Origin: Nitrospirota bacterium
Lineage (GTDB): Bacteria > Nitrospirota > UBA9217
Length of the DNA: 64,000 nt
Direction: 5' to 3'
Assembly: GCA_963740085.1 (NCBI GenBank)
Contig: CAVUCU010000004.1
Coordinates: 64,001-128,000, forward strand
Shown: positions 46,005 to 63,461 of the stretch, piece by piece
Position numbering within the stretch: position 1 is the stretch's first letter
Layout: each line of letters opens with the position of its first letter
Made by a program: the position numbers and the translations under genes
The notes under the pieces: model-generated
What the model saw: the letters and a program-made list of their open reading frames with translations, nothing else
The model's database searches: none
What the model was told of the DNA's origin: nothing

Positions 46005-46036
46005 GAGGAGAGAACGACCCGTTCTCTCCTCTTTTT
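46005..46036 (+). terminator. Rho-independent terminator of the surface-protein operon
   Basis: GAGGAGAGAACG-ACC-CGTTCTCTCCTC-TTTT. Confidence 0.8.
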
Positions 46037-47102: not shown

Positions 47103-47175
47103 GGTTAAGACTTTTCGTCGGATCATGGCAACAAATGGCGGACAGTTTACTGTCGCTCATGACAACTCAAAAGAT

Positions 47176-47215
47176 TAAGGAGAAAGGGGGAAATTGGGGA
47201 GAAACGGAGATAAAG
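47176..47215. repeat. Downstream ~9-mer arm flanking the GxxExxY gene
   Basis: TAAGGAGAAAGGGGGAAATTGGGGAGAAACGGAGATAAAG; the first 13 nt are perfectly complementary to 47662-47674. Confidence 0.75.
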
Positions 47216-47275
47216 TCTGGAAAAATGAACCGGGTTTAGTATCATCAAATATCTTCCAATCGGCTCCCCTTCGAC

Positions 47276-47656
47276 CTATTTTTTCACTAATTCAACCCTT
47301 CTCACATCAAGGGTAAAATCTGAAAAATTGACCAACAGGCCGACTTCTTTTTGCAAAGCTTTCAAATATGACCTCACTTGTGCATAGTATTTCTTACTTA
47401 AACCTTCTACTGTTTTTAGCTCAACTACGATATCACCTTCAATCAATAGGTCGATTTTATGACTTCCAACTTGAATATCACAATATCTAACCCTGACTTC
47501 CTTCTCTGATTCAAAGACAATTTTTTGTTTCTCAAGTTCAATCTTCAAGGCATTATGATAAATGCTTTCTAAAAAACCTGGACCTAATTCCTTGTGTACA
47601 ATTATACAAGCGTTGATAATTTTATCCGTTAAGTCCTCTTTTCCCCATTTCTCCAT
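47276..47656 (-). CDS. GxxExxY protein (TIGR04256, PD-(D/E)xK-like)
   Basis: VHKELGPGFLESIY, IDLLIE..IVVELK, AQVRSYLK, GLLVNF; visibly AT-rich. Confidence 0.92.
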   Translation of the reverse strand: MEKWGKEDLTDKIINACIIVHKELGPGFLESIYHNALKIELEKQKIVFESEKEVRVRYCDIQVGSHKIDLLIEGDIVVELKTVEGLSKKYYAQVRSYLKALQKEVGLLVNFSDFTLDVRRVELVKK

Positions 47657-47676
47657 CTTCTCCCTTTCTCCTTATC
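47637..47676. repeat. Upstream ~9-mer arm containing the GxxExxY SD and start codon
   Basis: Minus strand GATAAGGAGAAAGGGAGAAG-ATG-GAGAAATGGGGAAAAGA. Confidence 0.75.
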
Positions 47677-47773
47677 GTTTTACAACTGATTTTAATCTGT
47701 GCCATCAAACATTGCAAGCGGATTGTTCGAAAATCAATTGACATCCCTGTCGGGAACATGCTAAGAATTGCCC

Positions 47774-48220
47774 ATGAAAGCATTGCTCCAGCGGGTATCA
47801 TCCGCGCATGTTGAGATCGAGGGAACCACGGTCGGTGGAATCGGGAAGGGGCTCCTGGTTTTTCTCTGTGCGGTCAAGGGGGATACGGGAAAAGACCTTG
47901 AGTACGTGGCCAGGAAGGTGTCATCGCTCAGGATCTTTGAAGACGAGCAGGGAAAGATGAACCGGTCCGTTACGGATATTAGCGGCGAAGTGCTTGTCGT
48001 CTCGCAGTTCACGCTTGCGGCGTCAACGCGAAAGGGAAACCGGCCTTCTTTCGACAATGCCGAGGCACCGGAACTGGCAAAGAGGATGTATGATTTTTTC
48101 GTCAACCGGCTTCGCGACATGGGCATCCCTGTCCAAACAGGCACATTCGCAGCAATGATGCGGGTATTTCTCGTAAATGATGGTCCGGTGACGATTTCCC
48201 TCGACTCCCGGGAGGATTAA
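47774..48220 (+). CDS. dtd: D-aminoacyl-tRNA deacylase
   Basis: [26 protein letters not shown]. Confidence 0.96.
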
Positions 48221-48224
48221 CATC

Positions 48225-49070
48225 ATGCGGCGTATATTAATTAGGGGAAGTTTCTGGTTCTGGATGCTGGTCCTTCTCGCGTTACAGACGGGATGCACCT
48301 ACATGTTTTTTAAACCGTCAAAAGAATTTGTCATGAGTTCCGAAGTCCTCAGGTATTCACCCCAGGATGTCTATTTCAAGTCTTCTGACGGGGTGACCCT
48401 CCACGGATGGTATTTCAGGGCCAAGGAGGAGCACGGCACCATCCTCATCTGCCACGGCAATGTGGAAAACCTCAGCACTCATGTAAAGCTCGACCTGTGG
48501 CTGATCGACGCGGGCTATAATCTCTTCATCTTCGATTACCGCGGGTACGGAAGGTCGGAGGGGTCGCCGGATGTTCAGGGGATCAATCGGGATGCCGAGG
48601 CGGCGCTCGAAACACTTCTTTTTACACTGCCGCGCACGAAAGACGGCAGGATCATCGTCTTCGGGAAAAGCCTCGGCGGCGCCGTGGCTGTGTACACGGT
48701 TGCGAATTCACCGTATAAGGACCGCGTGAAGGCGCTCATCCTGGACAGCGCATTCTCGAGTTATCGCGCCATAGCGCGGGAAAAGATCGCAGACTCCGTC
48801 ATCGGCTGGCCGTTTCAGTACCCGCTTTCCTGGCTGGTCGACGACGACTTCAGCCCGATAAGATATATCAAGAGGATCACGCCTGTGCCCCTCGTTATTA
48901 TCCAGGGGAAGGCCGATGATATCGTGCCCGAACATCATGGACGTATCCTGTACGATGCCGCCCTGTTGCCCAAGGAATTCTGGGAGCCGGCAGTCCCCGG
49001 TCATGTGAAGGCACAGGCTGATGAAGGCACGAGGAAAAAGCTGTTGGACTATCTCACCAGGCTGCCATAA
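48225..49070 (+). CDS. Alpha/beta hydrolase, probable lipoprotein
   Basis: LQTGC leader, HGN, DYRGYG, GKSLGG nucleophile elbow, DDIVP, GH. Confidence 0.88.
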   Translation: MRRILIRGSFWFWMLVLLALQTGCTYMFFKPSKEFVMSSEVLRYSPQDVYFKSSDGVTLHGWYFRAKEEHGTILICHGNVENLSTHVKLDLWLIDAGYNLFIFDYRGYGRSEGSPDVQGINRDAEAALETLLFTLPRTKDGRIIVFGKSLGGAVAVYTVANSPYKDRVKALILDSAFSSYRAIAREKIADSVIGWPFQYPLSWLVDDDFSPIRYIKRITPVPLVIIQGKADDIVPEHHGRILYDAALLPKEFWEPAVPGHVKAQADEGTRKKLLDYLTRLP

Positions 49071-49162
49071 TAATCGAAGAAATCGAATACGTGTCAACGC
49101 AATTTAACTGCATCTGGGGTCTGCCGAGACGTGACAATCCCCACGCGCGGGGAAAAACTTCC

Positions 49163-49191
49163 TTGACAATCGCGGACTTTCACCTTATTAT
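49163..49191 (+). promoter_or_regulatory. sigma70 promoter of tRNA-Leu
   Basis: TTGACA, 17-nt spacer, TATTAT. Confidence 0.75.
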
Positions 49192-49200
49192 GTCAGCCGT

Positions 49201-49287
49201 GCCGAAGTGGTGGAACTGGTAGACGCGCTGCGTTCAGGGCGCAGTGGGAGCAATCCCGTGGGGGTTCGAGTCCCCCCTCCGGCACCA
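49201..49287 (+). tRNA. tRNA-Leu(CAG)
   Basis: Anticodon arm CTGCG-TTCAGGG-CGCAG, long variable arm GGGA-GCAA-TCCC, GGTTCGAGTCC T arm, encoded CCA; one A-C mismatch in the acceptor stem. Confidence 0.96.
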
Positions 49288-49591
49288 TATTTGACAAACA
49301 CGACTTTTGGGCTCAATTCCCGGAATGAGGTACTCAACTTCATGGGAACGCGGAAAGTCGAAAGAAATAGCAGCGTGCAACACCTTCTGCCCGTATTACC
49401 TCGATTTTGTCCAAGAAGGAACCTATTGCCTTTTTTTGTTCTCCCGGGTCTCGCTTCCTCAAAACCATTCCGATTTTTTATCAGATAACCTTACCGCTCG
49501 TATCCTTCGCAGGAAAAGGGGAGAGCAAGTCTTGTATGTGAGATATCCGGCATTCACAGACGTCTTGCATGAGGAAGGAACGTTAGGGCTG

Positions 49592-50242
49592 TTATCGTCT
49601 TATAGCAAGGCGTTGCCCCAGATCAAAGGCTTTCTGACAGTCAATTGGGAATATTTCCTTACGTCTCAAAGCCTTCTTCTCAGGGTCAAAATGCTCCATG
49701 ATGACCTTTGAATAGTCAGGAAACTGATACGTGTCATAGGAGCACAAGGTTTCGGCCTCGCCGAAGATCCTCTTTAAAGATGCTTCGGTGGCGCTCATCA
49801 TTGCTTGGTAGCCGATCTGCTTGCTCATTTCCTCGGGAACGTTCATCGTGTAGATCATCGCCGTCCGCAGTTTGCGCGGGAAGAGGGACCGTGAAGGCTG
49901 AGAATACACGAGAGGGGCAAAGAGAAGACGTTCCATGCATGATTTCAGCTCTCCGGACATGGACCCGAAGTATACCGGGGTTCCCAGCACCACTGCGTCG
50001 GCCTGGTCTTCGATCCGTTTTAAAACGGGGGTGAGCTCATCTTTCATGGCGCATTGCCCCTTGTTGGGCGAGTCGATCAATTTACACGCGAAACAACTTG
50101 TGCAGCCTTTGAAGGTGAGGTCATAGAGATGGATCAGTTCCGTTACCGCTCCGGCGGCCTGTGCCCCTTCAATGGTTTTTTCCAGCAGCGTTGCGGTATT
50201 CCAGCTCTTTCTCGGACTACCGTTGATGGCGATCAGTTTCAT
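49592..50242 (-). CDS. Flavodoxin-family / iron-sulfur flavoprotein
   Basis: INGSPRKSWNT, GCTSCFAC...C, GTPVYFG. Confidence 0.88.
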   Translation of the reverse strand: MKLIAINGSPRKSWNTATLLEKTIEGAQAAGAVTELIHLYDLTFKGCTSCFACKLIDSPNKGQCAMKDELTPVLKRIEDQADAVVLGTPVYFGSMSGELKSCMERLLFAPLVYSQPSRSLFPRKLRTAMIYTMNVPEEMSKQIGYQAMMSATEASLKRIFGEAETLCSYDTYQFPDYSKVIMEHFDPEKKALRRKEIFPIDCQKAFDLGQRLAIRR

Positions 50243-50319
50243 GTTGGATCAGCTCCTTATAGTGAACGACAGCAATGCCTATTGCATGGTTCCAGTTAGT
50301 GACCGGATGGTTCTTGTTC

Positions 50320-51387
50320 TTATCGCAGGGTAATGGCTTTTTCAGGACACATCTCCTGGCAGCAAAAGCACGCAATGCAAATCTCACCATTCACCTGGGG
50401 GATATTTCCAACCATAGCTAAAGCTGATACCGGACAATGATCAACACAGGTGCCGCAGCTCGTACATTTCTCAGGGTCCGCCTGAGGGCGCAGGATCGCC
50501 CGTCCATGGATCATTGACTGCATGGCCTCATTGCGGAATAGTGCTTCTCCGCCCAACGGGGGCAGTTTGAAATCAGGCAGCGTTTTCAACTCTCCGACGA
50601 TTTCGATCGTCTTGAGATCGTAGTCGCCCAGGCCTGCCTCCTTCGCCTTCTGAAGGAATCGTAGTTTTCCCGGATCGCATCCCATCATGGTCGCAATAAC
50701 GGAGTCAACAGCAACCGCATTGTCCGACGCGAGGAGCATGCCGATGTTCCTGAGGTCAGGGGAGGCTGGGCCATTTCCTTCCATCCCGACTACGGCATCA
50801 ACGATGAATAAATCCGGTACCCGAAGCTTGAATACCTCTACAATCACTTCATTAAAATCCGCAGGGTTGCCTGCAGCCTTGTGCAGCATGGCTTTCTGTG
50901 CGCCAGGCAATAAACCGTAACTGTTCTTGATCGCTCCAGTCAGAACAGTCAGGCCATGGGTTTTAAATTTCGGCAGACTGATGACAATATCAGCGTCCAG
51001 TGCGTCTTGCGAGACGCTGACAAACGGCATATATTTGGGATTGAAAGCGACTTTCTGGGAATCATTCCCGATGTTTTTATAGTGGCCTTTGGCTGCTTCC
51101 ATCAATCCGGTTTTGGAAAAGCTCTCCTCATTCGCGCCGTAACTGAACAGGCCTGGATTATCTCCCACGATAAGAGAGGCGGGGCCCATTGTTTCCACCT
51201 TTTCAACAACAGCACGAAGAACAGCAGGATTGGTGACGATACCATCTTTTGTCTCCGAGCTTCGGAGAACGTTTGGTTTGATCAGGACTTTCTTTCCCGA
51301 TACTGTCAGGGGAAAGAGTTCAAATGCCCGGTCTACGGCTTGACGGACATTCCCATAACTGGCTGGCTGGATCATTACTTTTGACAT
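50320..51387 (-). CDS. DUF362 protein with C-terminal 2x[4Fe-4S] ferredoxin domain
   Basis: VLIKPN, PKFKTH, TGAIKN, GMEGNGP, CTSCGTCVDHCP, CIACFCCQEMCP. Confidence 0.9.
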   Translation of the reverse strand: MSKVMIQPASYGNVRQAVDRAFELFPLTVSGKKVLIKPNVLRSSETKDGIVTNPAVLRAVVEKVETMGPASLIVGDNPGLFSYGANEESFSKTGLMEAAKGHYKNIGNDSQKVAFNPKYMPFVSVSQDALDADIVISLPKFKTHGLTVLTGAIKNSYGLLPGAQKAMLHKAAGNPADFNEVIVEVFKLRVPDLFIVDAVVGMEGNGPASPDLRNIGMLLASDNAVAVDSVIATMMGCDPGKLRFLQKAKEAGLGDYDLKTIEIVGELKTLPDFKLPPLGGEALFRNEAMQSMIHGRAILRPQADPEKCTSCGTCVDHCPVSALAMVGNIPQVNGEICIACFCCQEMCPEKAITLR

Positions 51388-51391
51388 GGTT

Positions 51392-51958
51392 TTACTCCTT
51401 TTTCGCGATTGAAAATGCCCTGCCTATACGCTCACCAATGCCATGGTAGGCGCCTTGCCCCGTATCAAAAACGAGCGGCTTGACCTTCAGGATATCAGCC
51501 ATTCCCTTCTCGCCGAGCACCGACTCTTCAGCCTTGATGTCCAGGATCTCTCCGATGAATTGCGTGTGAAGACCGATTTCCAGCGTGTGGATCACCTTGC
51601 ACTCTATTATCAAGGGAAATTCTTTTACGTACGGAGCGTCAACGAGGTCGCTTCGAACAGGGGTTAGCTTTGTCATTGCAAATTTATCGACATTTCGTCC
51701 GGAAGTCATTCCCACATAGTCCACCTCTTTCACCATCGCAACCGAAGGGATGTTAAGGGTATATGCTTTGCGTTCCTTGATGCTCCCGTATGTGTAGGTT
51801 TCCTTTCGCAGGGAAATAGTGACGCAGGGAGGTTGGGAGCAGCATATCCCGCCCCATGCAATAGTCATGATGTTTGGCTTGCCGTGCGAATCATAGCTTC
51901 CAACAACCCAGACAGGGGCTGGCTGTGCAAGTGTTTTGGCGCCGAGTGATTTTTTCAT
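51392..51958 (-). CDS. Flavin reductase family protein (flavoredoxin-like)
   Basis: PNIMTIAWGG, SGRNVDKF, ECKV, HTQFIGEI. Confidence 0.9.
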   Translation of the reverse strand: MKKSLGAKTLAQPAPVWVVGSYDSHGKPNIMTIAWGGICCSQPPCVTISLRKETYTYGSIKERKAYTLNIPSVAMVKEVDYVGMTSGRNVDKFAMTKLTPVRSDLVDAPYVKEFPLIIECKVIHTLEIGLHTQFIGEILDIKAEESVLGEKGMADILKVKPLVFDTGQGAYHGIGERIGRAFSIAKKE

Positions 51959-52104
51959 AGTTGCCTCCTTAAAAAATGTCGTAAGAGACCGAAGATCGGC
52001 AATGCAGACCGGCTTATTCAGCGGAGAATACGCCGACTGTTATATATCATCATGAATATATTCCTGATCTCAGACGATGTCAATAATGTATAAAATGCAT
52101 TGAC

Positions 52105-52204
52105 CAATCATTGGCAAAGGGAAATCCACGGTGATATATTGCACGCGTTGTTGCTGCCGTTGGGAAGCGTGTGCCTCAAGTGGGTGTCCCCCCTCCGGCA
52201 CCAT
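52105..52204 (+). repeat. ~100-bp att-like element: promoter plus tRNA-Leu 3' end (copy A)
   Basis: TTGGCA, 18-nt spacer, TATATT ... GTCCCCCCTCCGGCACCAT (19/19 identical to 49270-49288); aligns along its length with 61852-61949. Confidence 0.85.
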
Positions 52205-52242
52205 TTTCTTTCATATATATTTTCGATTAATAAAATCTGTGG

Positions 52243-52260
52243 CCCTTCGCTCGGCACCAT
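52243..52260 (+). repeat. Short degenerate tRNA 3'-end copy
   Basis: CCCTTCGCTCGGCACCAT. Confidence 0.55.
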
Positions 52261-52585
52261 CCTGAGGTGCACAACCTTTCAGGCACCTAGCCCAACCGGA
52301 ATGATATTGTCAATTTTCCTCGGCAGCTTATATCAACAAAGAAACAAAACCGTGCAACATCTTCCTCACGTATAACCTCAAACCTATCAGAGAAAACCCA
52401 GGTTAAGTCTTTTTGTTTGACGGCAGTCATTTCTTTAAGGATATCACCGGACATCTTTAAAGCTCGTGAATACTCGTTTACAGGAAGCAGAACTTTGTTT
52501 GGCTGACGTTTGATATTCTCATACCTTTCAATTTCTTCCTTTAGTTTTTCACGTGGTCCTGTGAATTTGCCGACCTGATTGCTAA

Positions 52586-52935
52586 TGACAACGTTCAGGA
52601 CATCGTGGACAAAAATAATGTTCACGACAAGCAGGCACTTTATCGCAGTTGGTACTTGTATTCTTCGACCTGGATTGAATCCAGGAAGAGCTTCAGCTTT
52701 TGTTCTTTGGCGGAACCGAGAACATTTCGCCCCAGATGCTCATCCTGCAATCGCTTCGGATAAAACGAACGGGATTATAATAACCTCCACCGTCTTATCC
52801 AAGAAGTGTTTTGAAACATCATTCTTGCTCGGAAAGATCAATTTTATCTCCGACGCGGCCAGCGCCTTGAGCGGTGTGCTCCCCTTGAGCTTACTGCAGC
52901 GGTAGGCGCTGTTATGGTGGTGTTCAAAAGCCTGG
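52586..52935 (-). pseudogene. IS481-like transposase C-terminal remnant with a putative terminal repeat
   Basis: Minus-strand frameshifted fragments FEHHHNSAYRCSKLKGSTPLKAL / RFIRSDCRMSIWGEMFSVPP / KEQKLKLFLD..VEEYKYQLR*, followed by GTCCACGATGTCCTGAACGTTGTCA. Family assigned by resemblance only. Confidence 0.55.
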
Positions 52936-53144
52936 GTTGATGCTGTGGCTATTCGATTCTTAGTACAGGGTGCGCTGCATGAATAGTTCTATCTCATACA
53001 TAGTTTGATTTATCCACCTCTCGATTATTGTATCAATTCTGTATTAATTAGGCCGCCGCAAGAATAACAAAGGATTGCAGTGCCATATTTTCTTTGCCGC
53101 AAAAAAACGGACGCCGCTGCCTGAAGAATTAGTATCCATACACA

Positions 53145-53157
53145 TATCAATAAGTTA
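53145..53157 (+). promoter_or_regulatory. IHF site
   Basis: TATCAATAAGTTA fits WATCAANNNNTTR, between putative enhancer sites and the sigma54 promoter. Confidence 0.6.
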
Positions 53158-53172
53158 ACGGCTGCAATGCAA

Positions 53173-53188
53173 TGGCATGGCGATTGCT
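53173..53188 (+). promoter_or_regulatory. sigma54 (-24/-12) promoter
   Basis: TGGCAT-GGCGA-TTGCT. Confidence 0.75.
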
Positions 53189-53243
53189 ATATCATCCACG
53201 AAGTTTGGCAACAACAATCATAACTACGGATCGGGGTGCAGCA

Positions 53244-55031
53244 ATGAAGGATAAATTAGAAGCAATACGCAATAACATTCACAGACACCACGGATGGAAG
53301 TGGTTCATACTTTCCACCGTTTTGCTGGGAGCCACCATGTCGGCCCTTGATGTAAGCATCGTAAACGTGGCTGTGCCGACGCTCAAGAACACCTTCGGGG
53401 TTTCGATGGCGGTCATCGAATGGATAACAATGGCGTATATGCTTACGCTGACCATATTCCTGCCGCTGTTCGGAAGGCTGGCCGATATGTTCGGCAGGTC
53501 GAAACTCTATAATATCGGATTTGTGGTGTTCTCTGTGGGTTCGCTGTTTTGCGGCATGTCGTCCACGGCGGGATTCATGATCGCAGCCAGAATCATCCAG
53601 GCCATCGGGGCCGGGCTTCTCCAGGCCAACTCCATTGCTCTTATTACCCAGGCATTTCCAACGAACGAGAGGGGCAAAGCTATCGGCATCCAGGCAGCAG
53701 TCCAGGCGATAGCGATGTCAGTCGGCCCTTTTGTGGGAGGCATACTGATCGCCACAGTAGGCTGGCGGGCGATCTTCTATATTAATATCCCCATCGGCAT
53801 ATTGGGGACCGTTGCCGCCCTGTTTATTCTTCCGCTTGACCAGAAAGTCGAAAAGAAGGAAAAGGTTGATTACCTTGGGGCAGCGCTGTTTGCCTCAGGA
53901 TTGGCATCTATCGTGCTCGCCTTCAACGAGGGAGTGAAGCTCGGTTGGGGCTCGCAAACCATCATGATGTATTTCGTGTCCGGCGCCGTGCTCCTGTCCC
54001 TTTTCATACTAACGGAGCTAAAGGTCGAGTTCCCGCTGATAGATCTTAAGCTTTTCAGGAACGCCACCTTTTTACTGGGGAACCTGACCGGTATGCTGTC
54101 CTATTATGTCCTGTTCGCGGTCATGTTCCTGATGCCCTTTTATCTCGAAAAAGCGCTTGGCTACAGTGTCGCTCTCACCGGCGCGCTGCTGACACCCCTT
54201 CTTCTTGCGATGGCGGTAGTGGCCCCATTCTCAGGCCAAATCTCGGATAAATACGGTTCGAGGATAATGACAACTTCCGGCATGATTCTTTCCGCCCTGG
54301 CATGTTTCTCACTTGTCTTCATGGGAGTGTCCGTGCAGCTGCCCCTGCTGGTATCTGTGTTAATACTCCTCGGGGCTGGCATGGGGATGTTTATTACTCC
54401 GAACAACAGCGTCGTCATAGGGGCCGCCCCTCAGGAGAAACTGGGAGTGGCCGGAGGCGTCCTGAACATGATGCGGTCCCTTGGGCTTATCTTCGGGGTG
54501 ACCATATCAGGCGTTATATTCACTACCCTGCAGCACAAGTACCTGTCCGATAATGGGTATCCAAATGTTCAACGTGTATTCAGCAACGCCAGTATTCCGG
54601 TGTCTGTTAAAGCCAGCGCATTTATGCACGGGTTTGTGATGGTAGTTATGGTCCTTATGGCAGTTACAATTTTTTCGGCATTCCTTTCATTTATCAGAAA
54701 AGTCAAAACAATTGACATCATAGATCATGAAGCAGCGAGAACCGCTGTCGTTTCATCAGGATTTTTTAATGGCTTTGGACAGGAAAGCAGGGGGATTGCT
54801 TTATTTATAATGCTCCTGCTGTTTATCGGGGTCACCAGTGCTTTTGCTTCGTCTCGATTGAGCGGCGGTAGCGTTACAACTACGAATGCAGTGCACAGCG
54901 TACCTGCGAAGTCTGATGTCGGGAAGAACGGCGAACCTGTAAAACAAAACATCAAACAAGGCGTTGCTGCAGCCGGGCATGGCACCGGTATGCGTGACTG
55001 GGCCTTTGATCTTTTAATCAACGTCAATTAA
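53244..55031 (+). CDS. DHA2 (EmrB/QacA-type) MFS transporter with a C-terminal extension
   Basis: LDVSIVNVA, GRLADMFGR, GPFVGG, WRAIFYINIPIG, PLIDLKLF. Confidence 0.9.
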   Translation: MKDKLEAIRNNIHRHHGWKWFILSTVLLGATMSALDVSIVNVAVPTLKNTFGVSMAVIEWITMAYMLTLTIFLPLFGRLADMFGRSKLYNIGFVVFSVGSLFCGMSSTAGFMIAARIIQAIGAGLLQANSIALITQAFPTNERGKAIGIQAAVQAIAMSVGPFVGGILIATVGWRAIFYINIPIGILGTVAALFILPLDQKVEKKEKVDYLGAALFASGLASIVLAFNEGVKLGWGSQTIMMYFVSGAVLLSLFILTELKVEFPLIDLKLFRNATFLLGNLTGMLSYYVLFAVMFLMPFYLEKALGYSVALTGALLTPLLLAMAVVAPFSGQISDKYGSRIMTTSGMILSALACFSLVFMGVSVQLPLLVSVLILLGAGMGMFITPNNSVVIGAAPQEKLGVAGGVLNMMRSLGLIFGVTISGVIFTTLQHKYLSDNGYPNVQRVFSNASIPVSVKASAFMHGFVMVVMVLMAVTIFSAFLSFIRKVKTIDIIDHEAARTAVVSSGFFNGFGQESRGIALFIMLLLFIGVTSAFASSRLSGGSVTTTNAVHSVPAKSDVGKNGEPVKQNIKQGVAAAGHGTGMRDWAFDLLINVN

Positions 55032-55262
55032 GGAAATGGGATCTTGTAGGTCCCTAACATAAAATTTATATGAGGAGGTAATTTAACAATGAGCAGATGG
55101 CCTTTTCCTTGTCCGTCCTTTAGCTTCTCGCGCGAGCCATAAATGGCTTGTCCTTGTGTCCGTGTTCTTAAGTGCAACCAAGTCGGCCCTGGGTGTGAAC
55201 ATTGCAAATCGGTAATGCCGAGTGTTTGTTGAGTCACTATATTATTTTATGGAGGTTGTGTT

Positions 55263-56033
55263 ATGTTAGCAAGCTGGCTGTTTTTACTGAGCTGTAGCTT
55301 AAGCGGTTCTTTTTTATCCAGTCTGTTGGGAATAGGGGGCGCCATATTCATTATTCCTGTAATTATGTTTTTTCAAAAGAATGTACATTTGAATATGGGG
55401 ATACATCAGATAAGCGCCCTTTCCACGCTTTTCGTCTTTGTGGCGGGGAGCATCGGTTTTTGGGCGCATGGCCGGCACATGAAGATAGAAAAGCGGTTGA
55501 TCCTCATAACCGGCATTTGTGCTTCCCTCGGGGCGCTGGCAGGTGGGACGGTGCAATTCTATCTGCCGCATAATGTGATTATGACAACATTCGTTACGCT
55601 ATTGTTTCTTATCAGTTTTTTGATGCTTTGGCCCCTTAAGGTTGAGTATACTGAGATGCCCGAATATTCAATAACTAAAACGGCTATTGGTTGTTTGACA
55701 GGAGGTTTTCTGGCAGGCACGGTGGGCATAGGAGGAGGCACGATACTGGTGCCCTTTATGATCGTTTTTCTTAAGATTCCTACCAAGGCGGCCATTGCTA
55801 CCGGCTTGGCTCTGGTAATGCTGGCAGGCCTTTTTGGCTTGGTCGGCCGGATGGGCCATGCTTCCTCTGTGCCCTGGATTTTAGGCATACCTCTCTTAAT
55901 CGGCATACTGCCGGGCAGCTTGCTCGGAACCTATACCAATCGGCGGGTGCCCGCAGCCGTTCTGCGCAAGGGCTTTGCCCTGCTGATTCTGGCGCTGGCT
56001 ATTCAGCAGGTCGCAACTATTTTCATGGCATAA
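55263..56033 (+). CDS. TauE/SafE (TSUP) sulfite-exporter family permease
   Basis: Two GIGG(A/G) repeats, AIATGL; highly hydrophobic, 256 aa. Confidence 0.85.
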   Translation: MLASWLFLLSCSLSGSFLSSLLGIGGAIFIIPVIMFFQKNVHLNMGIHQISALSTLFVFVAGSIGFWAHGRHMKIEKRLILITGICASLGALAGGTVQFYLPHNVIMTTFVTLLFLISFLMLWPLKVEYTEMPEYSITKTAIGCLTGGFLAGTVGIGGGTILVPFMIVFLKIPTKAAIATGLALVMLAGLFGLVGRMGHASSVPWILGIPLLIGILPGSLLGTYTNRRVPAAVLRKGFALLILALAIQQVATIFMA

Positions 56034-56046
56034 ATTCGTAGGTATC

Positions 56047-56152
56047 GAGCCTCTTGCGGAAGTCCCGTTCATGATTCGACAGACTCTCCACGAACGGAAA
56101 GATCCTTGCGTATTCAGTGCACCGCCGCCGCATGGACTTTTGCAAGAGGCTC
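56047..56152. mobile_element. MITE with 19-bp terminal inverted repeats and an internal REP-like hairpin
   Basis: GAGCCTCTTGCGGAAGTCC ... GGACTTTTGCAAGAGGCTC (17/19); internal CCGTTCATGATTCGACAGACTCTCCACGAACGG. Confidence 0.7.
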
Positions 56153-56187
56153 AACGTTTTATAATTCCTCAGGAGCTCTTTGCATAA

Positions 56188-57801
56188 ATGTTAACGAACA
56201 GAAGGACTGCGACAAAACCTAAAAGGATAAAAAAAATACTGGAGCATTGGCATGATTTTCGCCTGAAGCTTATTTTTGAAGGTATTTTAACCGGGGCGTT
56301 TGCCGGCCTGGTCGTGGTTTGTTTTAGACTTATGCTGGGTTGGACCGGCAAGGAACTGCCCAAGGTGTTTGCCTTTCTGAGGTCGAATGCCTTTAGCTGG
56401 ACCGCATTATGGTTTGTTTCCCTTATTATCAGCGGCTTGATTTTGGCCTGGTTGATTAAGGTCGTGCCGATGTCTACCGGCAGTGGCATCCCGCAGGTGA
56501 AAGGCATTCTGTCGGGATTTTGGCGATTTGACTGGCTTAAAGTAATCGGGGCAAAGTTTATCGGGGGTCTATTGGCAATTGGGGCGGGCCTTTCCCTGGG
56601 CCGGGAAGGCCCTTCGGTGCAATTGGGCGCGGCGGCGGGTCAGGGGATCAGCCGGCTTTTGAGACGCACCAGTATGGAGGAAAAATATTTACTCACCAGC
56701 GGGTCAAGCGCCGGGCTGTCCGCAGCCTTTAATGCCCCGCTGGCCGGGGTAATGTTCGCCCTGGAGGAACTGCATAAAAACTTTTCTCCGGTGGTGCTGG
56801 CTTCTGCCGTGGCTTCCTCGGTTACAGCGGTTTTTGTCACGCGCGAAGTTTTCGGGCAAAGTTCGGTGTTTGACTTTCACAATATTCCCGTGTTGCCCTT
56901 TCATTATTACTTGTATGTCGTGGTCCTGGGCCTTTTAGTCGGGGCTTTTGGGGTATATTTCAACTCGAGCCTGGTCAGATTTCAGGTTTTTTACGAGAAA
57001 CTGCCCTTGGTGCCACAAAAATTAAAACCGGCCATTCCTTTGATAGCGGCCGGATTCCTGGGATTTGTCCTGCCCCAGGCACTGGGCGGCGGAGACGACT
57101 TGATTAATTCGTTGCCGCAGATGCACTACACGCTCTCCCTGCTCCTGGTCATTATTGCGGTCAAATTTTACTTTACCATGTTGAGCTACGGTTCGGGCGT
57201 CCCGGGCGGCATCTTTATGCCCCTCTTGGCCATCGGCGCTTTAAGCGGCAATGTGTACGGCAGTCTTGCCGCCCAATATCTCCATGTTGAGCCCATGTAT
57301 GTCAACAACTTCATCATCCTGGCCATGGCCGCATACTTCAGCGCCATTGTCAAGGCGCCCATTACCGGCAGCGTCTTGATCATGGAAATGACCGGTAACA
57401 TGGAGCAGCTTTTACCTTTAATTACCGTTTGCATGTCCGCCTATATTGCCAGTGATTTATTTAACGGCAAGCCTGTTTATGATGTTTTGTTGAACCGGAT
57501 TCTGGCTAAACACAGGACAGCTTATAAACCGAGCCCTCAGGAACATGATGAGGAAAAACATATCCTGGAAAAAGTGGTCAGTTTGGGGGCACCGGCTTGT
57601 GACAAAAAAATATGCGATATTGATTGGCCGGAGAACAGTCTTTTGGTGGGTATCAGGCGGGGGGATGCCGAATTGATCCCGGCGCATGACACGATTATTT
57701 ATCCCGGGGATTATCTGATAGTGATGTCCGGGACAGCGGTATTCTCCAATGTGCACTCCTGTATCGAGGAACTGACCGGTGGAGAGAAGGTCTGTCTATG
57801 A
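56188..57801 (+). CDS. ClC H+/Cl- exchanger with C-terminal TrkA-C (RCK_C) domain
   Basis: GSGIP, GREGP, FNAPLAG, GGIFMP; tail LVGIRRG...IPAHDTIIYPGD. Confidence 0.92.
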   Translation: MLTNRRTATKPKRIKKILEHWHDFRLKLIFEGILTGAFAGLVVVCFRLMLGWTGKELPKVFAFLRSNAFSWTALWFVSLIISGLILAWLIKVVPMSTGSGIPQVKGILSGFWRFDWLKVIGAKFIGGLLAIGAGLSLGREGPSVQLGAAAGQGISRLLRRTSMEEKYLLTSGSSAGLSAAFNAPLAGVMFALEELHKNFSPVVLASAVASSVTAVFVTREVFGQSSVFDFHNIPVLPFHYYLYVVVLGLLVGAFGVYFNSSLVRFQVFYEKLPLVPQKLKPAIPLIAAGFLGFVLPQALGGGDDLINSLPQMHYTLSLLLVIIAVKFYFTMLSYGSGVPGGIFMPLLAIGALSGNVYGSLAAQYLHVEPMYVNNFIILAMAAYFSAIVKAPITGSVLIMEMTGNMEQLLPLITVCMSAYIASDLFNGKPVYDVLLNRILAKHRTAYKPSPQEHDEEKHILEKVVSLGAPACDKKICDIDWPENSLLVGIRRGDAELIPAHDTIIYPGDYLIVMSGTAVFSNVHSCIEELTGGEKVCL

Positions 57802-57929
57802 ATTGTTGCACAACCCCTATCCTTCCACCCCCATCCCTTTAGCGGTGGGGTTGGAAGCGTGTTTTAAATAACAATTTGCGGATATACAGTAAATAATGAA
57901 TTTTGTAGAAGGTAACACGAAAGACGAAG

Positions 57930-58454
57930 ATGTCTGAAACAATCGTACGCGACATAATGATAGCTATTGACAGCTATAGCACCGTGCGTTATGACGCAAA
58001 CCTGGAGGAAGCGGTAAAAGTACTTCATAAATCTTTTTACCAGGACGACAACGGAATTACATACGGACACAGGTCCGTTTTAGTGATCGACAAGGCCGGG
58101 GAATTGACAGGCATACTCACCATCCGGAGCATGTTAAAGGCGATGGACAAGGAATTGCCGGTTCTAGGTTCGGCTCTTGGCGGTCTCCTCAGTGAGCTTA
58201 CCCCGTTGCATGGGATGCTGGCTCGCATACCGGTACGGGAGGCCATGATTCCGGTTGCAAAGGCGGCGGTGAAGGAAGATGAAACCACCGGCCACGTCAT
58301 CCATGAGCTACTTAAAAGTGAGGCCGGCATTTTGCCGGTGCTCAGCGCGGGCAAAGTCGTGGGCATATTAAGAGCCATTGATTTTTTACAAAGTGTCGGC
58401 GATATATTGAGCGAAAAACAAAGAGTAATCCTCAGCTTTTTAACAGTCTCATAG
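57930..58454 (+). CDS. CBS-domain protein
   Basis: VRDIM...VLVID..GELTGIL; VREAM...LPVLSAGKVVGIL. Confidence 0.85.
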   Translation: MSETIVRDIMIAIDSYSTVRYDANLEEAVKVLHKSFYQDDNGITYGHRSVLVIDKAGELTGILTIRSMLKAMDKELPVLGSALGGLLSELTPLHGMLARIPVREAMIPVAKAAVKEDETTGHVIHELLKSEAGILPVLSAGKVVGILRAIDFLQSVGDILSEKQRVILSFLTVS

Positions 58455-58725
58455 TAGTATTTATAGATTCTTCTCCCGCGTTCGTGCCACAGATTCCAAA
58501 GACTCCCCATCGCGCCTCGCTCTCCTCTCTGATTGCCTCATGGCATTCAGATTACAGCCGAAAAAAGGCGGCGTCAACTTCTCCCAGCATATATGTCATT
58601 GACCCTCTGTGAAAAGAAGATTGCCGTGACAGCCCTCTTAGGGTTATAATGAAAAAGTTTGTTGGATTAAGTAGTATCCATTCAGAACAGTTTTCGCGCA
58701 ATCTTCAGCAGACACAGAGGACAAC

Positions 58726-60333
58726 TTGGGCGTAATAAAGCAGGGCGGATCATCGCTTACGACAAAGTTTATGCTTGGATTAGGCATAATACTGCTGTGT
58801 GTTATTGCCATTCTTTCCTTGATTACCTATGATTATCTGAAAAAAATGTTCATCAATGAGGCCTATGAGAAGACAGACATTGTGCTGGGCCATATTGATG
58901 CTACGATGGAATATGCACGGGATGAGCTCCGTCCCCAGATATTTCATGCCCTGCCCGGGAATGTCTTCATCAAGCAGGTCATGTCCAGCACCTTTATTAA
59001 CATGGGAATCATGAAGAGGTTTAAACAGAGATTTCCCAGCTACATTTACAAAAGAGCCGCCATCGATCCCATGAATCCTGCGAACAAAGCCGATGCCTTT
59101 GAAGAAAAATTTATCAAACAATTCCAGAATGACCCGGCTTCGAAGAAACAGTGGAGGGGCCTGGTTTCCAGAAATGGCGAGGATTACTTTCTCCATGTTA
59201 AAGCTGTTGTTGCTGAAGAAGAGTGCCTGCTCTGTCACGGAGATCCCGCTTTATCACCGGAGTCCATTACCCGGCATTACGGAACGATGCATGGACGCCA
59301 CTGGAAAGTAGGTCATGTAATTGGCCTGGAGTCGATCGCAGCGCCGGTGAGCGGCACATTGCGCCAGTTGCGAAACGCTACGTTTTTCTTTTTCCTTATC
59401 CGCGTCGCCGTCATCGGGCTTTTTTTTGTAACGATGACTTATTTCCATTACCGCATGGCGGTCATGCCCCTGAGACGGGTGAGCTCTTTTTTCAAAGATG
59501 TGGTGAACCGGCACCGGGGTCTTGATATTCATTTGGACGCGCAGGACTATGGTGAAGTCAACGAACTGACCGAATCCTTTAACTGGATGATGGTGCATTT
59601 GAAAAAATCCGAAGAGGAAAGAAAAGAGATGGAGGAACGGGTGCTGCAAGCCGACAAACTAGCCTCCATAGGCCGGCTTGGCGCAGGTGTGGCCCACGAG
59701 ATCAACAATCCGCTCAGCCTGATCCTAGGCTATACAAATATGCTGCGCAAGGAATGTCCGGACGCGGGGCAGGCAAGAGCAGACCTTGATATTGTTTACA
59801 ACAACGCACGATTGTGTAAAAAGATCGTTGAAGACCTGCTCTATTTTTCAAGACAGACCAAAACAGATCTTGTCCCTACCGATATTAACGCTGCTGTCGA
59901 GTCGGCGCTGGTTCCGATGGAAGAAACATTGCGTGCCGGAGGGGTTACAGTCATCCGCGATTATGCTCCTGCGCTGCCTCCTTTGGCGGCAGACGAGGAC
60001 AAACTAAAACGGATTTTCACGAACTTTCTGCTCAACGCTTTTCAGGCAATGCAGCCCGGAGGACGTCTTACCGTCACGACCTCTTATGACAGAGAGAGAA
60101 ACGGCGTGAGGATCGTTTTTTCAGACACGGGCTGCGGTATTCCTGAGGAAATCCGGGATAAGATATTCGAGCCTTTCTTTACTACAAAACCGCCGGGAGA
60201 GGGAACAGGACTGGGGCTTGCGGTAAGCTACGGGATCGTGAAGGAGCACAAAGGGGAACTTTCGGTCATGAGCGAAAAAGGGAAGGGTTCATCTTTTACG
60301 CTTTGGTTTCCTCTTGCGGGTGACCACGTATGA
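58726..60333 (+). CDS. Sensor histidine kinase with a periplasmic heme-c (DUF3365-type) domain and HAMP
   Basis: [16 protein letters not shown] heme motif, AHEINNP, NAFQA, DTGCG, FFTTK, GTGLGL. Confidence 0.9.
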
Positions 60334-61736
60334 AACAGACGATTCTTATTGTTGACGACAATCCGGATATGACCCGCTTGCTTGAGAGGCTCATCGGAAA
60401 TACGCTGCATCTGGAAACCCTATCCGCGGGCAGCGCAGCGGCGGCTCTGCGGATTCTCCAGGAGAAAACCATCAACTGCCTGCTTGTTGACATGAAGATG
60501 CCGGGCATGGACGGCATGGAGCTCATGCGGCGCATCAAGGAAAAGGACGCTTCCCTCCCCGTGATAATAATGACGGCCTATGGCGCCATCGAAACGGCCG
60601 TGGCCGCTATGAAAGAGGGGGCCTATGACTTCGTCACCAAGCCGTTCGAGGAGGAGCGGTTATTGCATACGGTGCGGAGGGCGATGGAGCATGAGAATCT
60701 CCTCCGGAGGAACCTGGACCTTGAAAGAAGGATCAGGGAGAAAGAACGGGAGACTTTCTTTGTCGGTGAGTCACCCCGGATGAAACAACTAATCGATACA
60801 ATTAAGCTGGTGGCCGGGACCGACGTGACCGTACTTATCACGGGCGAAACGGGGACCGGCAAGGAACTGGCGGCACGCATGATCCACAATCTTAGCAACA
60901 GGACCGGTAAACCTTTTGTGGCGGTCAACTGTCCGGCAATCCCTGAAACCATCTTAGAAAGCGAACTTTTCGGTTATCGCAAAGGTGCATTTACCGGTGC
61001 CAACTCTGACCGGGAAGGGCTTTTTCAGGCGGCACAGGGTGGGACCTTGCTCCTGGACGAGATAGGCGACATATCCTCCTCTTTGCAGGCAAAGCTCCTG
61101 AGGGTGCTGCAGGAAAGAGAACTGAAGCCATTAGGCGATACCATAACCCGGAGGGTGGATGTAAGGGTCATCGCCGCCACAAACAGGGACCTGCAGGGTA
61201 ATGTTGCCGCGGGGCTTTTCAGGTCCGACCTTTACTACCGGCTTAATGTCGTTTCGGTCAAGACGCCGCCACTCAGGGACATACCGGAAGATATACCACT
61301 CATCGCCTACCACTTTCTATCCCTGTTTTGCAGCGAGCTTGGATTGGGCCAAAAGAGGTTGACGGAAGAAGCAATACAGTTTCTTGTTTCCAGCCAGTGG
61401 AAAGGCAATGCCCGGGAACTTCAGAACGAGATAAAACGGGCGGTAATCTTTTCAAAAAGCGACCTGCTTGCGCCCGGGGATTTCGGTTCCCGCGTGGAAC
61501 TGATCACTTCGCGAAATGACGCCAATGAGACCGACAACCTCGATTACCGGGAGGCAAAGAAAAAGGTACTCGCTGCATTTAATAGTAACTATATTTCAAA
61601 CCTGCTGCGCCGCACAGGGGGAAATGTTTCCTCAGCCGCTCAGTCTGCGGGGATAGAACGCCAATCGCTCCAGCACCTTATGAGGAAGTATGGCATAGCC
61701 TCCGCCCAGTTTAGAAAAGATGAAGAAAATAAATAA
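60330..61736 (+). CDS. sigma54-dependent (NtrC-family) response regulator
   Basis: REC domain, GETGTGKE, ESELFG, GAFTGA, DLYYRL, WKGNAREL, Fis-type HTH. Confidence 0.95.
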   Translation: MKQTILIVDDNPDMTRLLERLIGNTLHLETLSAGSAAAALRILQEKTINCLLVDMKMPGMDGMELMRRIKEKDASLPVIIMTAYGAIETAVAAMKEGAYDFVTKPFEEERLLHTVRRAMEHENLLRRNLDLERRIREKERETFFVGESPRMKQLIDTIKLVAGTDVTVLITGETGTGKELAARMIHNLSNRTGKPFVAVNCPAIPETILESELFGYRKGAFTGANSDREGLFQAAQGGTLLLDEIGDISSSLQAKLLRVLQERELKPLGDTITRRVDVRVIAATNRDLQGNVAAGLFRSDLYYRLNVVSVKTPPLRDIPEDIPLIAYHFLSLFCSELGLGQKRLTEEAIQFLVSSQWKGNARELQNEIKRAVIFSKSDLLAPGDFGSRVELITSRNDANETDNLDYREAKKKVLAAFNSNYISNLLRRTGGNVSSAAQSAGIERQSLQHLMRKYGIASAQFRKDEENK

Positions 61737-61851
61737 TGGCTTATTATTTTCCGCCTCCTTAAATGCTAAAAGGAGTTTGTTTTTTATTTAGACGCCATAT
61801 AATAGAAGATAATATATAAACATGACCACTTTTATGCGAAAGATCATTAAG

Positions 61852-61949
61852 CAGTCGTTGACAATCGAAAGTCCACTATGATATAGTGCACCCGTTGTTG
61901 TCGCTGAGAAGCGTGTACCTCAAGTGGGGTGTCCTTCCTCCGGCACCAT
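61852..61949 (+). repeat. ~100-bp att-like element: promoter plus tRNA-Leu 3' end (copy B)
   Basis: TTGACA, 18-nt spacer, TATAGT ... GTCCTTCCTCCGGCACCAT; homologous to 52105-52204. Confidence 0.85.
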
Positions 61950-61959
61950 GTGGTAAACA

Positions 61960-62085
61960 GCAAATTCCAAATTACGAATCCCGAATAAATTCCAATTATC
62001 AAATTTCAATGACCCGGAGTCAGAAATTTGGTCTTTGATTCTTCTCTGAGCTTATTGGCGATTTGGTGCTCGTTATCTGGAATTT
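61960..62085. repeat. Heptamer-unit inverted repeat (gene-less)
   Basis: CAAATTC CAAATTA CGAATCC CGAATAA ... GATTTGG TGCTCGT TATCTGG AATTT. Confidence 0.7.
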
Positions 62086-62094
62086 CCCCATCGT

Positions 62095-62823
62095 ATGAAA
62101 AAAATACTCATCATAGTGCTCCTTGCCCTTCTCGCCGGGTGCGCGACAAAAGAACCACCCTTCAACGCGGTGGCCGTATTCAAGGCAGCCGAAGAGAACA
62201 TGCGCACGCAATCGTTCGAAAAGGCGCGCAAGGGGTACCAGCAGATCCAGGAACGGTCTCCGGACAAGAGCTATGACGCTGACCTGATGCTTCGTGTCGC
62301 GGACACCTACTACGGCGAGGAGAAATACAGCGAGGCGCTGGTCGAGTACCAGGCCTTCCTGAACTACCATCCCGTGCACAAGGACGCGCCGTACGCCCAG
62401 TACCAGATCGCGATGTGCAACTACCAGGACCTCTCCACCATTGACCGTGACCCCGCGCCCGCCCATGCCGTGATCAGAGAGATGCGAAAGCTCATGGAAA
62501 AATATCCGCACAGCGGCTACGAAGAGCAGGCGAGAAAATATATTGCCATCTGCACGGACTGGATCGCGGAGTACGAACTTTACGTTGCGCATTTCTACTA
62601 CAAAAAGGGGTCCTACAAGGCGGCTGTGGGAAGGTGCGAGAACCTTTTGAAGGAATACCCGGGCTCGAGCTCGGAGAAGGACGCGCTCTATTATGCGGGT
62701 CTTTCGTATCAGGAACTTGGCGAGAAGGACCTGGCGCGCGCCAGGTTCGAGACACTCGCGCAGAAATATCCGGCCATGAAGACAACGGCGCTGTCCCACA
62801 TCCAACACCTGCACCTGCAATGA
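62095..62823 (+). CDS. bamD: Outer membrane protein assembly lipoprotein BamD
   Basis: Lipobox LAGC, TPR repeats, FLNYHP, DRDP, YELYVAHFY.KKGSYKAA..R. Confidence 0.9.
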   Translation: MKKILIIVLLALLAGCATKEPPFNAVAVFKAAEENMRTQSFEKARKGYQQIQERSPDKSYDADLMLRVADTYYGEEKYSEALVEYQAFLNYHPVHKDAPYAQYQIAMCNYQDLSTIDRDPAPAHAVIREMRKLMEKYPHSGYEEQARKYIAICTDWIAEYELYVAHFYYKKGSYKAAVGRCENLLKEYPGSSSEKDALYYAGLSYQELGEKDLARARFETLAQKYPAMKTTALSHIQHLHLQ

Positions 62824-63461
62824 AATTTTACCCCGTATATCTGGACCTTCGCGATCGGCCCTGCGCGGTCATCGGCGGCGGAGCGGTGGCCGAACGCAAG
62901 ACGCTCGCGCTCCTTGAAGCCGGGGCCGATGTGACGATCATAAGTCCGGCGCTCACTCCAAAACTGAAAGGTTTTTCCGACGCCGGAAAGATCACCCATT
63001 CTAAAAAACAGTATGAAGAAAGCGACCTCTCCGGCGTGTTCCTCGTGATCGCTGCTACGCCTTCGGTCGAGGTGAACACCCTCGTGGCGCGTGCATGCAG
63101 GAAGAGGCATGTGCTGGTCAATGTAGCGGTGCCTCCGGAGGAGAGCAGCTTTATCGTACCCTCGGTGGTGGAGCGAGGAGATCTTTTGATCGCGGTCTCC
63201 ACGAGCGGCGCAAGTCCGGCGCTGGCGAAGAAGATCAGACAGGACATCGAACAAAGGTATGGCGCGGAGTACGGGCTTTTCCTTGATAAAATGTCGGCGA
63301 TCCGTCATCGGGTACTTGAAAAGGTCCCTGATGGACGGAAAAGACATGAGGTGTTTCAGGAGCTCGTGGACTCCGATGTCATCGATCTCATCCGTCTCGG
63401 AAAGACGCACGAGGCGGAGCTGCGAATGGCTGAGATCGCGGGATTGAAGCACCGGGTGTAA
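62820..63461 (+). CDS. sirC: Precorrin-2 dehydrogenase / sirohydrochlorin ferrochelatase (CysG N-terminal type)
   Basis: YPVYLDL, VIGGGAVAERK, IAVSTSGASPALA; ATGA overlap with bamD. Confidence 0.9.
   Translation: MKFYPVYLDLRDRPCAVIGGGAVAERKTLALLEAGADVTIISPALTPKLKGFSDAGKITHSKKQYEESDLSGVFLVIAATPSVEVNTLVARACRKRHVLVNVAVPPEESSFIVPSVVERGDLLIAVSTSGASPALAKKIRQDIEQRYGAEYGLFLDKMSAIRHRVLEKVPDGRKRHEVFQELVDSDVIDLIRLGKTHEAELRMAEIAGLKHRV

Follow-up and report, generated by a model that had tools for sequence, protein, structure and literature searches.

Known phage-type large serine integrases mostly target protein-coding genes, and their attP and attB sites share only 2-16 nt. Outward promoters at element ends, such as Pcirc of ICEclc and Pout of insertion sequence (IS) elements, are strong and constitutive, reading across the junction. 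Concerning the staphylococcal cassette chromosome (SCC, SCCmec), it is known, partly from two sources (10.1101/336396, PMC13739063), that large serine recombinases (LSRs) of the Ccr type insert into a conserved gene (rlmH/orfX) at its 3' end without destroying it, with direct repeats, tandem stacking and some members devoid of a recombinase; according to a further source (PMC12884075), tRNA genes are frequent targets of integration and are often completed by the attP sites. The present analysis concerns an array of two cargo blocks, each closed by a conserved element of about 100 bp, which lies between a tRNA-Leu(CAG) gene and bamD in a Nitrospirota genome (G000; assembly of 3.46 Mb, 98.5% complete), within a contig stretch of 64,000 nucleotides that is referred to as the window and whose positions are used throughout. 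A narrow literature search found no description of an LSR family at tRNA-Leu in Nitrospirota.

The array very probably consists of decayed tandem islands of one LSR family, inserted by the LSR at the 3' end of tRNA-Leu(CAG), a view carried by the insertion, by the remnants of the recombinase, by the ends that the islands have in common and their arrangement as inverted repeats, and by the connection with intact LSRs. The only tRNA in the window is tRNA-Leu(CAG) at 49201-49287 (ARAGORN, with Rfam in agreement), and its 3' end (49270-49291, 22 nt) recurs at 52186-52207 (95%) and 61931-61952 (82%), a degenerate copy being readable at 52243-52260. Between the elements of about 105 nt at 52098-52204 and 61845-61949 the identity is 79%, and both the tRNA 3'-end repeats and the shared upstream element noticed in the first-pass annotation were recovered in the repeat search. 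The same search revealed a repeat pair that had been overlooked, 49320-49417 versus 52296-52394 (72-76%, spacing 2976-2977), which corresponds to the two LSR pseudogene remnants described below. The features of the locus are as follows:

49163-49191, + strand: sigma-70-type promoter of tRNA-Leu, TTGACA-17-TATTAT, 11/12 matches, kept upstream of the tRNA in relatives
49201-49287, + strand: tRNA-Leu(CAG), the integration target, its 3' end forming the attL of the array
49270-49301, + strand: attL of block 1, i.e. the tRNA 3' end (repeat copy 1, 49270-49291) and a decayed P' half-site TTTGACAAACAC (49290-49301)
49288-49484, - strand: LSR remnant 1, last ~80 codons with the stop; tblastn with the G020 protein matches 49237-49371 (70%) and 49355-49480 (62%)
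49592-51958, - strand: block 1 cargo, an operon of FMN_red, DUF362+Fer4 and Flavin_Reduct (Pfam)
52098-52204, + strand: right-end element 1, the putative attR of block 1, with promoter 52111-52140, P half-site GTGTGCCTCAAG 52169-52180 and core 52186-52204
52205-52260, + strand: AT-rich spacer of 38 nt and a degenerate element-type core (CCCTTCGCTCGGCACCA), as read from the sequence
52248-52625, - strand: LSR remnant 2, with P' half-site CCTGAGGTGCAC at 52261-52272; 62% over 74 aa, E 3e-26; tblastn E 9.9e-27
53074-61736, + strand: block 2 cargo, MFS, TauE, CLC, CBS, Tll0287-type histidine kinase and sigma-54 response regulator (Pfam)
61845-61949, + strand: right-end element 2, the putative attR of the array, with promoter 61858-61887 (TTGACA-18-TATAGT, TG), P half-site GTGTACCTCAAG 61913-61924 and core 61931-61949
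62095-62823, + strand: bamD (YfiO, Pfam), its ATG 208 nt past the hexamer end (61887) of the element-borne promoter

For the survey of relatives, the BamD protein was searched in 60 other genomes of the same Nitrospirota family and the best 30 loci were examined. The tRNA-Leu(CAG) gene lies 20-289 nt upstream of bamD in 19 of these 30 loci, the spacer being just 20-24 nt in four of them (G005, G069, G014 and G009). In G003, the closest relative (BamD 91% identical), collinearity with the window extends as far as 49291 (90.6%) and resumes at 61931 (92.6%), and its one tRNA 3' end matches both window copies; the congener G004 exhibits the same collinearity across 49291 and 61931, with the tRNA-Leu directly beside bamD. 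Since both genomes carry this empty site, the segment 49292-61930 (12,661 bp start to start) is an insertion that is flanked by the 22-nt repeat and has the att sites as its exact bounds. In a third relative, G001, the order is tRNA, 26 nt, the last ~50 nt of the element and bamD, which looks like the scar of a deleted island.

Both blocks start with the last ~80-110 codons of an LSR gene. This is based on G020, in which a tRNA-bamD interval of 6.7 kb is closed by the same 100-bp element and in which an opposite-strand gene beside the tRNA, interrupted by IS elements, contains the Recombinase (PF07508) and Zn_ribbon_recom domains. The unannotated open reading frame (ORF) of 112 aa at 52287-52625(-) aligns to the C-terminus of this recombinase over the 74 aa listed above for remnant 2, and tblastn with the same protein against the whole of G000 returned three pieces, all of them in the window (52248-52556, 49237-49371 and 49355-49480). 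The remnants are C-terminal only, without the catalytic domain. The first-pass statement that no recombinase lies between the tRNA and bamD is thus right as far as an intact gene is concerned, whereas two pseudogene remnants, 52248-52625(-) and 49288-49484(-), had escaped it. Full-length LSR genes were found in G084 and G085 (617-626 aa, with Resolvase, Recombinase and Zn-ribbon domains), long homologous frames occupy the same position in G019 and L077, these being assigned by homology rather than by domain scan, and fragments are present in L076, L078 and L081. At all eight loci concerned (G084, G085, G019, G020, L076, L077, L078 and L081), the LSR gene and a tRNA-Leu gene (anticodon CAG, GAG or CAA) meet at their 3' ends.

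Insertion by a tyrosine integrase, as assumed at first pass, with the LSR remnants as unrelated passengers, would accord with the direct repeats, since repeats 19-22 nt long at the 3' end of a tRNA gene are the classic signature of such enzymes. It is hardly credible, however: none of the 15 ORFs that were scanned over 46035-63461, i.e. the interval and its surroundings, has a Phage_integrase domain (PF00589), it is an LSR gene that abuts the tRNA at every locus with an intact or partial recombinase, and the integration site has the inverted-repeat layout of about 50 bp of an LSR attP, as described below. In the G084 island, three adjacent tyrosine recombinase genes are present, but they are internal, 8-17 kb from the island end.

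That island (C22:33377-94340, comprising L101, L102, L103 and L068) spans 61 kb and carries an intact LSR of 626 aa (L068:17545-19425). It should be mentioned that among its cargo are RHS-repeat genes accompanied by several RHS-tip fragments, a Wadjet-like set of MksE, DUF3584 and DUF7281, fragments of an MmeI-like restriction-modification gene, PIN/HTH and MNT/HepT pairs, a Mu-type transposase and a beta-helix protein of 3126 aa, while neither conjugation genes nor phage structural genes were seen among the 61 kb. As for the LSR reading frames themselves, two of them (L068:17545-19425 and L070:7243-9096) extend through the antisense of the entire tRNA gene; in an excised circle, the frame would end inside the right-end element, so that the integrated and excised forms would encode proteins with different last 17-59 residues.

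To compare the ends of the islands, all junctions were anchored on CGGCACCA. Those on the tRNA side with a recombinase all carry TTGAGGTACAC or a close variant 1-3 nt past the tRNA end, and those on the far side all carry GTGTACCTCAAG, its reverse complement, about 12-15 nt before the repeat. Joining P and P' gives a site of ~52 bp with inverted half-sites across ~25-30 nt that include the tRNA 3'-end copy; inverted half-sites round a centre are the known layout of serine-integrase attP sites. The same pair of motifs is the best inverted repeat in four of the five reconstructed P/P' sites (10-11/12 matches, a score reached by 0-8 of 500 shuffles), and the junction between the two islands of G082 is a natural P/P' site, as expected if a second element integrates into a rebuilt tRNA. 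The centre of symmetry is the CC that immediately precedes T(T/C)CGGCACCA: on the left of it, an element-specific TT is present in most of the far-side copies (CCTTCC versus CCCCCC in the tRNA), and on the right of it the second right-end element has the C variant peculiar to the tRNA of G000, G003 and G001. We infer that strand exchange takes place at about this CC. As an observation apart, the tRNA-Leu(CAG) of these three genomes reads CTCCGGC at a position where most relatives have CTTCGGC, giving an A5·C mismatch in the acceptor stem; the variant is a feature of the lineage, occurring at empty sites, too.

A search with the half-site plus core pattern yielded five sites in four of 64 genomes and none in the control with a reversed pattern. 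The match in G084 lies 61 kb from a tRNA-Leu(GAG) abutted by the LSR, on the same strand, and the half-site and core of right-end element 2 agree with this attR of an intact-LSR island in 35 of 36 nt; an earlier search for the G084 right end, using an 8-nt core within 20 kb, had given a chance match in an ORF only. The module of promoter, half-site and core also closes the G020 island, both G082 islands and L081. As the same module closes all of these islands, including the one with the intact LSR, the 100-bp element is the right end of an island family and not a novel cassette-closing signal. The genome-wide search proposed at first pass thus finds two copies in the whole 3.46-Mb G000 assembly and no others, in addition to the right ends in G084, G020, G082 and L081. 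The first-pass annotation had also specified beforehand that the element occurring only at the ends of integrase-bearing islands would speak against cassettes of a new kind, and this is the situation encountered in G084 and G020.

The 5' part of the element, upstream of the half-site, contains TTGACA-N18-TATAGT with an extended -10 TG. In a consensus scan of 13.3 kb that gave 25 sites, those at 61858-61887 (11/12, TG) and 52111-52140 (10/12, TG) ranked among the top four, the other two being the tRNA's own promoter and the promoter of the block 1 operon. The latter side of the locus presents a strong promoter-like sequence, TTGACA-17-TATATT, at 52055-52083(-), which points toward the block 1 operon and stands back to back with the promoter of right-end element 1. 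An alignment of 15 right ends, which includes the element of G025 (g18) from outside the 30-locus count, revealed that both hexamers and the TG are near-invariant and the spacer is variable. Of the bamD loci, 11 have no tRNA in the 1.5 kb upstream; the promoter motif is present in all 11 of these, at a distance of 17-216 nt from the ATG, and in none of the 19 tRNA-bamD spacers where the tRNA is adjacent. In G008, G026, G063, G077 and G032, the half-site and core have been lost and the promoter has been kept.

A role of this conserved stretch other than that of a promoter, either as a platform for an accessory or directionality factor or as the coding end of the LSR in the circle, is rather improbable. 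It would agree with the fact that in the circle the LSR frame would cross attP and stop just past the -35 box, a similar tail (…VQYIIVDF[K/R]LST…) being found in G084, G020, G082 and block 2 of G000, and with the orientation of the 'promoter' in L081, which faces a convergent gene. The frame across the att core varies, however, being in register 2 for G084, G085, G019 and L077 but in register 0 for G020; neither the -35 nor the -10 hexamer varies, whereas the 15 nt between them do so freely; and the motif persists 17-76 nt from bamD in the five genomes named above, which have no half-site, no core and no trace of an LSR. A conserved coding feature was also considered for the element as such and was rejected, because the LSR frames across attP differ between elements.

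The element has TTGACAATCG in common with the tRNA promoter and its 3' part loosely resembles a T-arm and acceptor end, which might suggest that the elements are duplicates of the tRNA-Leu gene in decay, promoter included, or else a gene for a small RNA derived from a tRNA, and that paralogous tRNA copies enclose blocks of ordinary chromosome. There is very little to recommend this: no Rfam family reaches E 1 at either element, ARAGORN finds the one tRNA only, in single-sequence folding the element folds no better than its shuffles (z -0.19 to +0.17), the likeness to the tRNA body ends after ~20-30 nt, and the element closes the far side of LSR islands that sit at the genes of three different tRNA-Leu isoacceptors. 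The small-RNA or tRNA-like candidate was consequently rejected, the Rfam search at E<=1 having given the tRNA and one chance match elsewhere, and the folds being like those of shuffles.

With regard to bamD, spacers of 20-24 nt between the tRNA and bamD leave no room for a promoter, so that bamD is presumably co-transcribed with the adjacent tRNA at the empty-site loci. The promoter of the element would then replace the tRNA promoter, from which bamD has been cut off by the insertion. Three points should temper this: the loci in which the promoter motif was counted had also served to define it; the 11 promoter loci represent four genera only (g1, g12, g13 and g19), so that they are not independent; and the promoter of L081 faces a convergent gene, hence driving a downstream gene is not its only role. 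The promoter module accordingly belongs to the element, and bamD would make use of it opportunistically.

The cargo of the two blocks was described correctly at first pass, Pfam agreeing with three redox genes in block 1 and a sigma54-regulated transporter module in block 2. Block 1 is 88.4% identical at the nucleotide level over 2386 bp to an island of G082, a member of another genus, and its LSR remnant 85% identical, the flanking rlmN and hydrolase genes reaching 69-74%. Since the identity of the island (85-88%) exceeds that of the flanking genes, block 1 is younger than the split of the hosts and hence was transferred. The G082 version is larger, with additional adh_short, DLH, nitroreductase, isochorismatase and MFS_3 genes, and it adjoins bamD with the other island between it and the tRNA, whereas in G000 the redox island adjoins the tRNA. 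The LSR is truncated at residue ~302 in G000 and at ~282 in G082, and these may be separate deletions after the transfer. The cargo of block 2 is collinear (79-86% at the nucleotide level) with G004:C12:1227742-1236262, 216 kb from the tRNA-bamD pair of that genome, in a place where neither a tRNA nor the core or element is present; the flanks of the latter site are adjacent in G000 (C3:127606/127637), which represents an empty site. The block 2 module is thus accessory and has changed its place.

Several results do not sit easily with the simple picture of two stacked islands. The reconstructed attP of block 1 is decayed (9/12 matches, a score reached by 45 of 500 shuffles) and the expected repeat is not its best match; the core of right-end element 1 has the tRNA-type CCCCCC instead of the element-type CCTTCC; and the 56 nt between that core and the P' site of block 2 (52205-52260) do not fit a simple two-element model. 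This last segment, consisting of AT-rich 38 nt and an element-type core (CCCTTCGCTCGG…), may be a vestige of a third element. Moreover, the cargo of block 2 may have entered its island secondarily, given the att-free site in G004. Finally, in metagenome contigs from four soil runs of one study (X1-X4, in which 21-49% of the sampled words are present), neither a joint that bypasses a block nor any recombination was observed, at low depth and with contigs only.

Within the same contigs (aligned on 48000-63000), the junctions between the tRNA and block 1, between block 1 and right-end element 1, and between right-end element 2 and bamD are all bridged; two joints that were listed (12 nt at 52629 and 331 nt at 60523) have no connection with the att sites, and the loose contig ends at 49285-49290 belong to other organisms sharing the tRNA. 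Neither the Resolvase (PF00239) nor the Recombinase (PF07508) domain has a match in the G000 assembly, where tblastn with the LSR finds the remnants only. The absence of both a block-skipping joint and a serine recombinase domain suggests that the array in G000 is fixed, although its mobilisation by an incoming element is possible. Of the checks proposed at first pass, those for circular junctions joining the att copies, in the contigs of the four runs, and for an integrase acting in trans, in the assembly, were thus both negative; the comparison of tRNA-Leu-bamD intervals did bring variable content and order (empty in G003 and G004, a different order in G082), though no sign of mobilisation in trans.

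Cassettes without a recombinase for which a related incoming LSR still provides mobilisation in trans, and that stack and shuffle in a psiSCC-like, integron-like manner, are therefore to be considered unlikely, and so is the corresponding alternative of the first-pass annotation, i.e. integron-like minimal cassettes. At least one site, that of right-end element 2 with its 35/36 nt, still looks recognisable; the position of the redox island does differ, being beside the tRNA in G000 and beside bamD in G082; and this island is 85-88% identical across two genera in spite of only an LSR remnant in both. Against these points, the P' half-sites are decayed, the unequal truncations (~302 versus ~282) possibly reflect separate deletions after transfer, and no directionality factor has been identified in addition to the missing domains and excision joints; LSR excision normally needs such a factor, too.

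The other alternative put forward at first pass, a stack of islands of a single family that have decayed at the tRNA, is supported by the empty site in G003 and G004, by the homologous left and right ends and by the same ends on the intact-LSR island of G084; the inserting enzyme would be an LSR, to which the remnants belong, in place of the tyrosine integrase. According to this scheme, two, perhaps three, islands of one family would have been inserted by an LSR into the 3' end of tRNA-Leu(CAG) upstream of bamD. The original island would have had, at its left end, the LSR gene with its 3' end abutting the tRNA and, at its right end, the module of ~100 bp with the left half of attP and an outward sigma-70 promoter. 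Integration would rebuild the tRNA and shift its old 3' end to the far side, giving rise to the direct repeats, and further elements could stack since the rebuilt junction would still resemble attB. Both LSR genes of G000 would subsequently have been deleted to their last ~80-110 codons, leaving fixed cargo without any serine recombinase, and the right-end promoter would have taken over the transcription of bamD after the insertion severed it from the tRNA promoter.

A more far-reaching version, to which we give somewhat less than even weight, would see in these ends a repair kit for the host: the LSR islands would bring along the tRNA 3' end as well as an outward promoter resembling that of the tRNA, which would drive anew the downstream gene—bamD at the CAG locus—and would be kept after decay as the only bamD promoter in at least 10 sampled genomes of four to five genera. 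The recombinase-less blocks might, as a further possibility, still be substrates for incoming LSRs, which would make the tRNA-Leu/bamD junction an SCC-like dock for cassettes.

Some other features of the surroundings should be pointed out here. The sequence TGGCATGGCGATTGCT at 53174-53189 resembles a sigma-54 -24/-12 promoter, as judged from the generally known motif, and coincides with the listed start of the MFS gene, so that the true start of this gene is probably further downstream; the motif would accord with regulation by the sigma-54 response regulator (60330-61736). Upstream of the tRNA, the segment 47103-47709 (~600 bp) has a low GC content (0.43) and contains a PD-(D/E)XK nuclease gene (PDDEXK_3, 47276-47656); it is absent from G003 and G001, both being collinear on either side, and looks like a small separate insertion. 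At 45000-45900, the alignment with G003 has several offsets ~200 nt apart, which indicates a tandem repeat of ~200 bp within a coding region.

The apparently integrase-free array can accordingly be explained by the ordinary decay of site-specific islands, with no new mechanism of mobilisation being needed. The analysis moreover defines, from sequence alone, an LSR family for which an attP/attB pair can be predicted in the tRNA-Leu genes of a phylum without cultures, and such pairs are raw material for integrase-based genome engineering. The promoter offers a testable example of a mobile element that would compensate its polar effect on an essential gene of outer-membrane assembly, the host later keeping the promoter; among decayed tandem islands, such a replacement of the bamD promoter is an unusual detail.

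Compared with the systems described so far, the array resembles the SCC and psiSCC composites in its insertion at a 3' end with the target kept, its direct repeats, its tandem stacking and its recombinase-less members, this being a functional analogy that does not imply kinship with Ccr. It differs from SCC in that the target is a tRNA gene and not a protein-coding one, the host belongs to Nitrospirota and the right end bears an outward promoter; and unlike in psiSCC, where a resident Ccr-type LSR serves for mobilisation in trans, G000 contains no Resolvase or Recombinase domain. Integrons, with an adjacent integrase, attI and Pc and with cassettes each closed by a folded attC, are a poor match, too: there is no integrase beside the array, the blocks are multi-gene with promoters of their own, and the element folds like its shuffles.

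With the phage-type large serine integrases, such as those of phiC31, Bxb1 and A118/LI, the family shares the order of the Resolvase, Recombinase and Zn-ribbon domains and an attP of ~50 bp with imperfect inverted half-sites round a central crossover, the layout of their sites being taken from general knowledge; unlike theirs, the element here carries ~20 nt of a tRNA 3' end and, in the G084 island, phage structural genes were not seen. The tRNA islands of tyrosine integrases (P4-like elements, integrative and conjugative elements, and NBU1 at tRNA-Leu) are similar in the 3'-end target, the rebuilding of the gene by the element, the direct repeats, the tandem arrays and the decayed remnants, but their recombinase family is unrelated, and here the att site is short and symmetric, with neither arm-type sites nor Xis expected. 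As in the case of Pcirc of ICEclc and Pout of IS elements, the promoter is situated at one end and reads out of the element; while in ICEclc it drives the integrase after circularisation, the one described here would be antisense to the LSR gene in the circle and faces bamD in the integrated state.

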